Of a stretch of DNA of 64,000 nucleotides, positions 15,001 to 18,000 are shown in pieces (within the stretch, counting starts at the first letter, position 1; each line of letters opens with the position of its first letter). Source of the DNA: a virus. Lineage: Duplodnaviria > Heunggongvirae > Uroviricota > Caudoviricetes. The position numbers were made by a program. The DNA is taken from IMG/VR virus record IMGVR_UViG_2718217789_000003; one strand, written 5' to 3'.

Positions 15001-18000
15001 CAGGAAGCATTGAACAGGACGCAGACTCAATCATCATGCTCTATCGGGAAGCGGTATATGATGAGAACAGTAGCGCCGCGCCATTTGCTGAAATCATCGT
15101 GACGAAAAACCGTTTTGGCTCGCTTGGTACAGTTTACCAGCGGTTCTGTAACGGACACTTTGTTGCATGTGACCAGGATGAAGCCAGACAGATTTGCACA
15201 GCATCAAATGCACCTGCTGCGCGTGGCAGACGATATGCACAAGGGGCTGACGTATGACCATCTACATCACTGAGTTAATAACAGGCCTGCTGGTAATCGC
15301 AGGCCTTTTTATTTGGGGGAGAGGGAAGTGAACGATAGCTACCGACAGTTTGAAAACTGGTGGTCAAAAGACAAAAGCCAGTTCACGGGAGACGATGAAT
15401 TAAAAGAGTTTGCCTGGGTGATATGGCAGGCATCGCGCTCTGCTATTGAACTGGATATCGACTGGCCCGAATCGAATGACGACCTTTGGAAAGATGGTGA
15501 AGAAGGTGCTTATGCGATGGGTTATGAGGATGGGCGTGACAAAACGGTAATTGCAGTAATGAAAGCCATCAGGGCCGCAGGAATCAAAGAAAAGAATTTC
15601 GATTAAGCAAATATCACTTCAATAAATCGCTTTTAAGGCATCACAATCGCTCTGTGGTGAGGTAAGCACGTGCAAGGTATACCGATAAGCAGCGAGAATG
15701 AAAAATGCGTCAGAATGCGTTTGAGGAGGTTTTAAGAAATGAGTACGATAGCTGAGCTTGTCAGGGCTAATTTTCGTGAAGAGTTGGTGCGTTGGTATCG
15801 GTATCGTTCATCGTCCAGTTTGCCGCTTGATGAGTTGTATGAGCATTCACCTGCCGCACGACGCTATCCGCGTGACCGTGTTCTTCGACGGTTGTTCAAA
15901 CTCAACAATGAGTTTCAGCGCAACAGAATTATCCGGAGTCTGGATTTTAAGTGAAGGAGTGAGCATGAGCGACCTATCATTAACCCAGCCAAAGCTAAAA
16001 GAATGTCCGTTTTGCGGCGGTAATGCTCGTCTGTGGGTTGAGGCCGGAATAAATATTGATGTGTGGGGCTATGCAGAATGTGACCTCTGTGAAGCCAGGG
16101 TGGCATGGGCACCATCAGTTGCTGCGGCTACTGAAAAATGGAACCGGAGAGCAGGAGATGAAGCAAACCTTTCTGCTTCGCAACGAAGCAATCAGAAATA
16201 ACGCCATAGACGCCATTCTCTCACTACCCATCGACGACAAGTCACCCCACGAAGTCCACGTTAAAGAACCCAAGCGCAGCAAAGCGCAGAATGACCGCAT
16301 GTGGCCGATGCTGAACGATGTTTCGCGTCAGGTGCTATGGCATGGTCAACGGCTGGCGCCGGAAGACTGGAAAGACCTGTTCACTGCCCTGTGGCTTAAG
16401 ACCAAAAAACTGGAGCAAAGAAGTGCGCCTGGTATCGACGGTGGCGTTGTCATGCTTGGCGTGCGTACCAGCAAAATGCGAAAGGCCAGCATGACTGAGC
16501 TTATCGAAATCATGTTCTGGTTCGGCTCAGAGCGCAACGTGCGGTGGAGTGATGACTCCCGGCGAGAGTATGAATGGTCACAACGAAAAGGGAAGGCTGC
16601 ATGACTATCAAATCAAATACGCCAGCACACGACAAGGACTGCTGGCAAACGCCGCTCTGGCTTTTTGATGCGCTGGATATTGAGTTTGGATTCTGGCTGG
16701 ATTCAGCTGCGAGCGACAAAAACGCTCTGTGCGCTCACTGGCTAACTGAGGCTGACGACGCGCTAAATTCTGAGTGGATAAGCCACGGTGCAATCTGGAA
16801 TAACCCACCGTACAGCAATATCAGGCCGTGGGTGGAAAAAGCCGCTGAGCAGTGCATACAACAGCGACAGACGGTAGTGATGCTTGTGCCAGAGGATATG
16901 TCTGTCGGATGGTTCAGCAAGGCTCTGGAGAGTGTTGACGAAGTTCGCATCATCACTGATGGACGGATTAATTTTATCGAACCATCGACAGGGCTGGAGA
17001 AGAAGGGAAACAGCAAAGGCTCAATGTTGCTGATTTGGCGACCGTTCATCAGTCCTCGACGGATGTTTACTACCGTATCCAAAGCGGCATTGATGGCGAT
17101 CGGGCTGGGCGTCAGGAGGGCTGCATGAGGCGACAGCGACGAAGTATCACCGACATCATCTGCGAAAACTGCAAATACCTTCCAACGAAACGCTCCAGAA
17201 ATAAACGCAAGCCAATCCCAAAAGAATCTGACGTAAAAACCTTCAATTACACGGCTCACCTGTGGGATATCCGGTGGCTAAGACATCGTGCGAGGAAAAC
17301 AAGGTGATTGACGTGATGATTTATTCGGGGCTATATTCCTCAAACGCCAGCAAAATCTGGCGTCGGGATTGGCGTCCTGGATAGAGACCGCGACAGATAC
17401 ACGCCGCGAGCGTGTTTTTTATTGTCGTATGCACGCGCACATCTGAATTATGGTGGGCTGTGTGGGGGCGGAGAGATCCGCGCCGGTCGGTTTCCCGGTT
17501 ACGCCAACCCTGCACAGTTCACCACCAGACGATTGGCGTCGTCGGTGGTGAGTTATTAAGAAACCACCAGAGGGCGTCATTATGACAACTAAAATTTCTG
17601 TTGAAACTCTCTCCCCGATCACCCATAACCAGATTCCTGTTATTACCACCGAACTTTTGGCGCAGCTTTACGGCACTGAGCCGGTGCGTATTCGCCAGAA
17701 TCATCATGAGAACAAAGTACGCTTCGTTGAAGGGAAACACTTTTTCAAAGTTGTTGGTAATGACCTTAAAGAATTGCGGGTAGCTTTAAACTACTCACAA
17801 AATTTGCGGGTTACTTTAAGTAACTCACAAAATTTGCGGGTTACTTTAAGTAACTCACAAAATTTGCAACCATCTTTAAGAGGGTTACAAATTTCCCCGA
17901 AAGCCCGCTCCCTCATCCTCTGGACAGAACGCGGCGCAGCCCGTCACGCAAAAATGCTCGAAACCGATCGGGCGTGGGAAGTGTTCGAAAAACTGGAAGA

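Follow-up and report, generated by a model that had tools for sequence, protein, structure and literature searches.

Three overlapping reading frames in the nin region of a Caudoviricetes genome (IMG/VR record IMGVR_UViG_2718217789_000003) encode a Lar-like zinc-finger protein, NinB, and an orphan adenine methyltransferase, and their arrangement raises the question of whether they act together as an anti-restriction and methylation module, as the initial annotation had proposed, or are separate genes that travel in one operon. We addressed this question in the whole stretch of 64,000 nucleotides that was analysed, here called the window, and in related phage and bacterial genomes. The reading that we favour, with a probability of about 0.88, places the locus in a lambdoid Stx2c-type prophage of E. 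coli O157:H7, as the promoter-proximal part of a nin region flanked by the replication genes and Q, and regards its overlapping genes as independent mosaic cargo. The three genes are already known and annotated, and they are ordinary rather than parts of a dedicated anti-restriction unit.

Gene layout and origin of the locus

The genes of the locus and the elements that border them are the following.

15283-15306, + strand, terminator-like hairpin and T-run (8-bp stem, 6 GC pairs, TTTTATTT tail)
15739-15954, + strand, gene for a DUF7301 protein of unknown function (71 aa; PF23975, E = 3.8e-26; phrog_1785; annotated by PGAP)
15965-16201, + strand, Lar-like ORF (78 aa, ATG to TAA)
16158-16604, + strand, NinB ORF (148 aa)
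16601-17128, + strand, methyltransferase ORF (175 aa)
17125-17307, + strand, NinE, of unknown function (60 aa; PF05322, E = 8e-44; annotated by PGAP)
17344-17420, + strand, isrK-family small RNA (Rfam RF01394, 74.7 bits; gathering score 50)

The Lar-like and NinB frames overlap by 44 nt, and the NinB/methyltransferase and methyltransferase/NinE junctions each consist of a 4-nt ATGA overlap; these overlaps suggest that translation of the block genes may be coupled. GGAG-type Shine-Dalgarno sequences stand ahead of the Lar, NinB, and NinE starts, the one at the Lar-like ATG being GAAGGAG at a distance of 5 nt, and a weaker purine-rich sequence, GGGAAGG, lies upstream of the methyltransferase start. 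The DUF7301 gene is directly upstream of the Lar-like gene and was co-inherited with the block in all 63 IMG/VR loci that we compared (see below).

The terminator-like hairpin at 15283-15306 lies just 3′ of the replicative helicase gene (13881-15257), which we take to be the position of lambda tR2 and the upstream border of the nin genes. Terminator-like sites were not more numerous than in shuffled sequences, so this hairpin serves as positional evidence only. The isrK-family small RNA, which has a promoter-like site of its own at 17308-17337 and a terminator-like site at 17399-17415, marks the downstream edge of a four-gene block composed of lar-like, ninB, the methyltransferase gene, and ninE.

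Several alternative frames were considered and rejected. A 147-aa form of the Lar frame that starts at a TTG (15758) gains an extra part that belongs to no family and overlaps the DUF7301 gene, and it is also disfavoured because the strong Shine-Dalgarno sequence belongs to the ATG at 15965. Similarly, a 182-aa form of NinB from a TTG at 16056 adds a part with no family match, and both the HMM and the 1pc6 alignments start at the ATG at 16158. An ATG at 16574 was set aside as the methyltransferase start, the TIGR01712 model beginning at residue 2 of the form that starts at 16601. An antisense ORF of 174 aa at 16735-17259 matched no family. The annotation of phage 1717 includes an extended Lar frame, of 141 aa, similar to the 147-aa form.

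The surrounding DNA is well represented in sequenced genomes. A segment of 1701 nt around the locus is 100% identical to the Stx2-converting phages 1717 and 2851, and many chromosomes of E. coli O157:H7 carry it unchanged; the block matches 421 of 50,697 phage records, and 2214 of 5426 complete E. coli genomes contain all of it or a part. The whole window aligns colinearly with the Stx2c prophage that adjoins sbcB in E. coli O157:H7 TR01 (~99.5% identity), and it carries stx2A/B at 22334-23715. The proteins of the block are 97-99% identical to their VT2-Sakai counterparts. For the identical DNA of TR01, the PGAP annotation in RefSeq gives exactly the same coordinates once these are mapped onto the window and names the products DUF7301, Lar family restriction alleviation protein, recombination protein NinB, phage N-6-adenine-methyltransferase, and NinE, and the RefSeq record of phage 1717 uses the same gene names.

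The initial annotation had placed three genes with overlapping frames at 15965-17128, and its coordinates and descriptions agree with the ORFs, with the overlaps between them, and with PGAP. Its identifications of a Lar-like protein, of NinB, and of an adenine methyltransferase with an NPPY motif are also all correct, the curated family cut-offs having been passed and the matches lying well outside what chance would give. These names are already in use across genomes and phages, and beyond correct annotation the locus carries little significance.

Linkage of the three genes

The ninB gene is located within the nin region, after the replication genes and ahead of Q; its product matches PF05772 over its full length (E = 2.1e-48, model positions 1-131 of 131) and belongs to phrog_72. 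Residues 2-146 align with the structure of lambda NinB/Orf (1pc6, E = 1.1e-28), and the protein is 98% identical to the product of the VT2-Sakai NinB frame. Lambda Orf is a recombination mediator, which binds single-stranded DNA, substitutes for RecFOR, and loads recombinase on SSB-coated single-stranded DNA. By this homology, NinB here is predicted to be a homologous-recombination mediator, and we know of no role of NinB in restriction evasion. The suggestion that NinB takes part in anti-restriction is thus contradicted by its match to lambda Orf (1pc6, E of about 1e-28).

The proposal of a coordinated module, in which the Lar-like protein would alleviate restriction, the methyltransferase would modify phage or host DNA, and NinB would be part of the same unit, draws on the common orientation of the genes, on their overlaps of 44, 4, and 4 nt, and on their linkage in related phages. 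The full DUF7301–Lar–NinB–methyltransferase–NinE block was intact in 61 of the 63 IMG/VR loci that combined a Lar allele nearly identical to this one with sufficient flanking sequence. This co-occurrence, which counts in favour of a module, fits recent common descent and is also compatible with functional linkage.

Loci at greater distance showed a different picture. Among the species-representative Escherichia loci L007 to L011, three (L007, L008, and L010) had a methyltransferase and NinE at 98-99% identity together with a NinB allele at 42-49% and no Lar, and two (L009 and L011) had NinB at 91% and Lar at 32-35%. We also scanned with Pfam 143 neighbouring ORFs at 16 divergent loci from other Enterobacterales, in which the methyltransferase is 60-79% identical to the one in the window. 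RusA was found at 13 of these 16 loci, Lar at three, and NinB next to the methyltransferase at one. A local Lar HMM detected Lar-family ORFs at four of the 16, one upstream and three downstream of the methyltransferase gene by 0.5-1.4 kb. In lambda, the order at the same place is ren-NinB-NinC-NinD-NinE. Because the Escherichia and divergent loci reshuffle Lar, NinB, and the methyltransferase, and because the lambda order differs, we regard these as mosaic nin genes that can be exchanged independently.

These comparisons weigh on both sides of the module proposal. The presence of Lar-family ORFs near the methyltransferase gene in three or four of the 16 divergent loci speaks for it; against it stand the single case of an adjacent NinB, the variable positions of Lar on either side of the methyltransferase gene, and the independent recombination of Lar, NinB, and the methyltransferase gene among the Escherichia loci. 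The assignment of NinB as a recombination mediator is a further argument against a common protective function. The systems on which Rac Lar acts are of type I, whose specificity does not depend on GATC methylation, and this also counts against a module that combines a Lar-like protein with the methyltransferase. In addition, strains that carry the enzyme show no new methylation motif (PMC6602927). We therefore consider it unlikely that the three genes form a joint protective unit. Judged from the sequence comparisons, the trio is fixed among near-identical E. coli phages only, and the apparent module is probably best described as co-transcribed mosaic cargo.

Predicted activities of the Lar-like protein and the methyltransferase

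The Lar-like protein scored above the curated cut-offs for PF14354 (37.8 bits, cut-off 28.6) and TIGR03655 (61.4 bits, cut-off 39.6) and matched phrog_599, annotated as 'Lar-like restriction alleviation protein' (E = 1.5e-38). It is 36% identical over 58 aa to RalR/Lar of the Rac prophage (b1348; E = 3e-10), and its residues Cys14, Cys17, Cys39, and Cys42 form two CxxC pairs in which all four cysteines are aligned with those of RalR. The homology of 15965-16201 to Lar, on which the first identification of this gene depended, thus holds on a proper search, by PF14354, TIGR03655, and the RalR alignment. A Pfam scan of the protein (E ≤ 0.01) returned PF14354 alone and revealed no homology to lambda Ral; according to PMC4041452, the sequences of Ral and Lar are unrelated. 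A PDB search returned just zinc-ribbon ribosomal proteins, at non-significant scores. The 80 relatives of the protein in IMG/VR are all at least 96% identical to it and are therefore uninformative about deep conservation.

For Rac Lar, an easing of restriction together with stronger modification has been reported (King and Murray 1995, cited in PMC4041452); the restriction concerned is of type IA (EcoKI), and Rac Lar is the single tested relative for which this activity is known. By homology to it, the most likely role of the Lar-like protein would be to weaken type IA (EcoKI-like) restriction and to favour modification of unmodified DNA. Our literature search found no experiment on Lar-like proteins of Stx phages.

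Later work presented Rac Lar/RalR as a toxin with non-specific DNase activity, able to cleave methylated as well as unmethylated DNA and neutralised by the small RNA RalA (PMC4041452), and NCBIfam labels this prototype a toxin. With 36% identity to RalR, the Lar-like protein might likewise be the DNase of a type I toxin-antitoxin pair instead of an anti-restriction factor. It falls far short, however, of the RalR equivalog NF007260 (28.7 against 113 bits), and the RalA family RF02694, readily detected in Rac at 225 bits, is absent at the gathering score from the whole 64-kb window. The gene is, moreover, translationally embedded in a lytic-cycle operon. Given these differences, we find it very unlikely that the protein is a RalR-type toxin, and an anti-restriction role remains the reading that we prefer.

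For the methyltransferase, PF05869 was the sole Pfam family returned (E = 2.6e-64), with no match to PF02086, the family of host-type Dam. The enzyme scored 264.2 bits against the TIGR01712 equivalog (cut-off 97.05) over model positions 1-165 of 165, and its best PADLOC matches were 'orphan methyltransferase' models. The catalytic NPPY motif occupies residues 68-71 (window positions 16802-16813); N68, P69, P70, and Y71, as well as L33, D34, and A36 of an N-terminal LD.A segment, are invariant in 14 homologues that range from 59 to 100% identity. No endonuclease gene lies next to the methyltransferase gene, its neighbours being ninB and ninE. By these matches and this context, the protein is predicted with confidence to be an orphan phage N6-adenine enzyme. 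Neither a sequence search nor a profile search with 14 sequences found a solved relative in the PDB, and the mean pLDDT of an AlphaFold2 model built from the single sequence was 43.4, too low for use.

The target of the enzyme had been said to be unreadable from the sequence. We found that 173 of its 175 residues (99%) are identical to those of VT2-Sakai orf32 (NP_050531.1), with two substitutions, I60V and L169Q, neither of functional note. In its account of the VT2-Sa prophage, PMC6602927 names the orphan enzyme M.EcoVT2Dam and describes it, citing Radlinska and Bujnicki 2001, as 'known to target 5′-GATC-3′'. We take orf32 to be M.EcoVT2Dam because the first 30 kb of VT2-Sakai, the extent examined, has no other annotated methyltransferase. 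Through this 99% identity, and as far as the account in PMC6602927 extends, GATC can be assigned with good confidence as the predicted target, contrary to that earlier view.

It had further been suggested that the enzyme could alter host methylation. A new methylation motif is not expected in lysogens because the host is already Dam+, and a published comparison points the same way. Two O111 strains characterised by SMRT sequencing differ in that 95NR1 has two copies of a 99% homologue and 95JB1 has none (PMC6602927). The sole difference between their methylomes was a CRARCAG motif, which the authors ascribed to a type IIG enzyme, and no extra motif was attributable to the phage enzyme (PMC6602927). 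A wider set of host methylation motifs is thus not expected. A screen that looked in lysogen cultures for proteins produced from the prophage recovered the identical gene of phage Phi24B, whose expression changed significantly on prophage induction (PMC3342100).

The window is strongly depleted in GATC, which is the most avoided tetranucleotide, and this depletion sits oddly beside a need for GATC methylation. That a phage avoids GATC more than any other tetranucleotide yet carries a GATC methyltransferase of its own is a puzzle, although not a new point.

Two further alternatives concern partners and substrates. In one, either the Lar zinc ribbon is a phage recombination accessory, which would protect or process transiently unmodified intermediates, or the 175-aa methyltransferase gains an unexpected substrate through a partner protein. 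The first part is raised by the position of Lar, translationally interlocked with NinB here and beside RecT/RecE in Rac, and the second by the lack of a target-recognition domain and by the precedent of an MT-A70 enzyme from Stx phage PA8, which is annotated as a GATC DNA methyltransferase and prefers 16S rRNA when complexed with the product of a neighbouring gene (PMC10810198). We grant this pair of ideas a very slim chance. Least probable of all is the idea that the methyltransferase has a substrate other than GATC in DNA or serves another purpose, for instance by methylating RNA or by controlling prophage induction: the PA8 precedent, the detection of the Phi24B copy in lysogen cultures (PMC3342100), and the lack of a solved structure detectable by sequence in this family speak for it, but the PA8 enzyme belongs to a different family (MT-A70, with a DPPW motif, encoded by the early-left gene gp5, and not PF05869/NPPY), and the 99% identical M.EcoVT2Dam is reported as GATC-specific in the account given in PMC6602927. 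For the same reasons (MT-A70, DPPW, early-left), reinterpretation of the enzyme as a PA8-type rRNA methyltransferase (PMC10810198) was rejected; the annotation of the colinear prophage in TR01 lists no second methyltransferase.

Proposed roles and comparison with known systems

If the locus is mosaic nin cargo, as we favour, its genes could act as follows. By analogy with lambda, lar-like, ninB, the methyltransferase gene, and ninE would be delayed-early genes. Once a cell is infected or the prophage induced, transcription that starts at pR and is antiterminated by N would pass the tR2-like terminator and enter the block. The Lar-like protein, as its homology to Rac Lar suggests, might then transiently blunt type I restriction, NinB would load recombinase onto SSB-coated single-stranded DNA in the manner of lambda Orf, and the methyltransferase may keep rapidly replicating phage DNA fully GATC-methylated. 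Full GATC methylation could in turn shield this DNA, in other hosts, against GATC endonucleases that are sensitive to methylation, and might keep it out of host processes that depend on hemimethylation.

The methyltransferase shares with the Dam enzymes of E. coli (PF02086), T4, and P1 a GATC target, according to the literature, and orphan status. It differs from them in that no sequence relationship was detected and in its much smaller size (175 aa), with no recognisable separate target-recognition domain or solved relative, and it is thus probably 'Dam-like' in target alone. Its close counterpart is M.EcoVT2Dam (VT2-Sakai orf32), which has the same length of 175 aa, the same NPPY motif, and the same slot between ninB and ninE, and of which copies occur in 933W-type phages and in Phi24B, HK97, 1717, and 2851, the copies in 1717 and 2851 being 100% identical in DNA to the one here.

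Rac Lar/RalR and the Lar-like protein are both small four-cysteine zinc ribbons with CPFCG...C..CE motifs and an (E)(K/R)WN(K/R)R stretch, and both adjoin recombination genes, recT/recE in Rac and ninB here. The Rac protein has 64 aa, whereas the one here has 78 aa, with a C-terminal tail encoded in the overlap with ninB. Rac Lar belongs to an early-left operon and the Lar-like gene to the nin (early-right) region, and the latter differs further in its score below the RalR equivalog and in the absence of the RalA small RNA.

NinB resembles its lambda counterpart (1pc6) in its full-length PF05772 match and in its place after the replication genes and before NinE; the allele here has diverged, and its start lies inside the upstream gene. 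At the level of the whole region, the methyltransferase gene stands where lambda has ninC and ninD, the DUF7301 and lar genes fill the ren slot, and antirepressor genes with their small RNAs are inserted after ninE. The two nin regions nevertheless share an operon logic, ATGA-type overlaps, and the anchors NinB, NinE, NinG, the phosphatase, and Q.

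GATC depletion and the orphan methyltransferase

Across the whole window, GATC was the rarest of all 256 tetranucleotides relative to expectation: the 126 sites observed, a density of 1.97 per kb, amount to 0.45 times the 281 that a Markov model predicts. GATC was absent from several stretches of 4 kb (22001-26000, 44001-48000, and 60001-64000), and the four-gene block of lar-like, ninB, methyltransferase, and ninE genes contained a single site, at position 17098. Prophages with GATC-free regions have also been noted in PMC6602927. This GATC-poor phage nonetheless encodes a presumptive GATC methyltransferase (16601-17128). 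Neither a sequence search nor a profile built from 14 sequences found a solved structure for the PF05869 family to which this enzyme belongs, and an AlphaFold model generated from the single sequence was unusable; a separate target-recognition domain was not obvious within its 175 residues.

Genes and small RNAs flanking the four-gene block

The interval between the helicase and lar-like genes holds two conserved genes, the second of which was inherited together with the four-gene block in all 63 of the IMG/VR loci examined. Directly 3' of ninE, we observed three small RNAs, followed or interspersed by antirepressor genes.

Features flanking the four-gene block
15313-15606, phrog_343 gene without a Pfam match
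15739-15954, DUF7301 gene
17344-17420, isrK-family small RNA
17446-17529, C4 antisense RNA match
17582-18340, ORF6N/antirepressor gene
18474-18557, sRNA-Xcc1 match
18596-19276, ORF6N/antirepressor gene
19345-20073, third antirepressor-like gene

The C4 and Xcc1 matches each lie just upstream of an ORF6N/antirepressor gene, in what looks like a duplicated version of the P1-type C4/ant immunity arrangement. In the product of 17582-18340, the ORF6N domain match spans residues 12-125 and includes a tandem peptide repeat, SQNLRVTLSN, present in about three copies.

RNA elements near stx2 and elsewhere

Other RNA features in the window
8455-8513, minus strand, lambda cIII thermoregulator element
22139-22379, three tRNA genes just upstream of stx2A/B
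23790-24001, STnc100-family small RNA just downstream of stx2B

Integrase gene and IS element

An IS3-family element (IS629/IS1203), located at about 296-1605, seems to divide the integrase gene into two parts.

Features of the integrase region
From base 1, N-terminal part of the integrase
338-1228, minus strand, IS orfB
1154-1270, minus strand, ALIL frameshift pseudoknot within the IS
1225-1551, minus strand, IS orfA
1689-2492, C-terminal part of the integrase

With its integrase gene apparently interrupted in this way, the window prophage may therefore be defective in excision, whereas in the colinear prophage of E. coli O157:H7 strain TR01 the IS copy lies inside exo.
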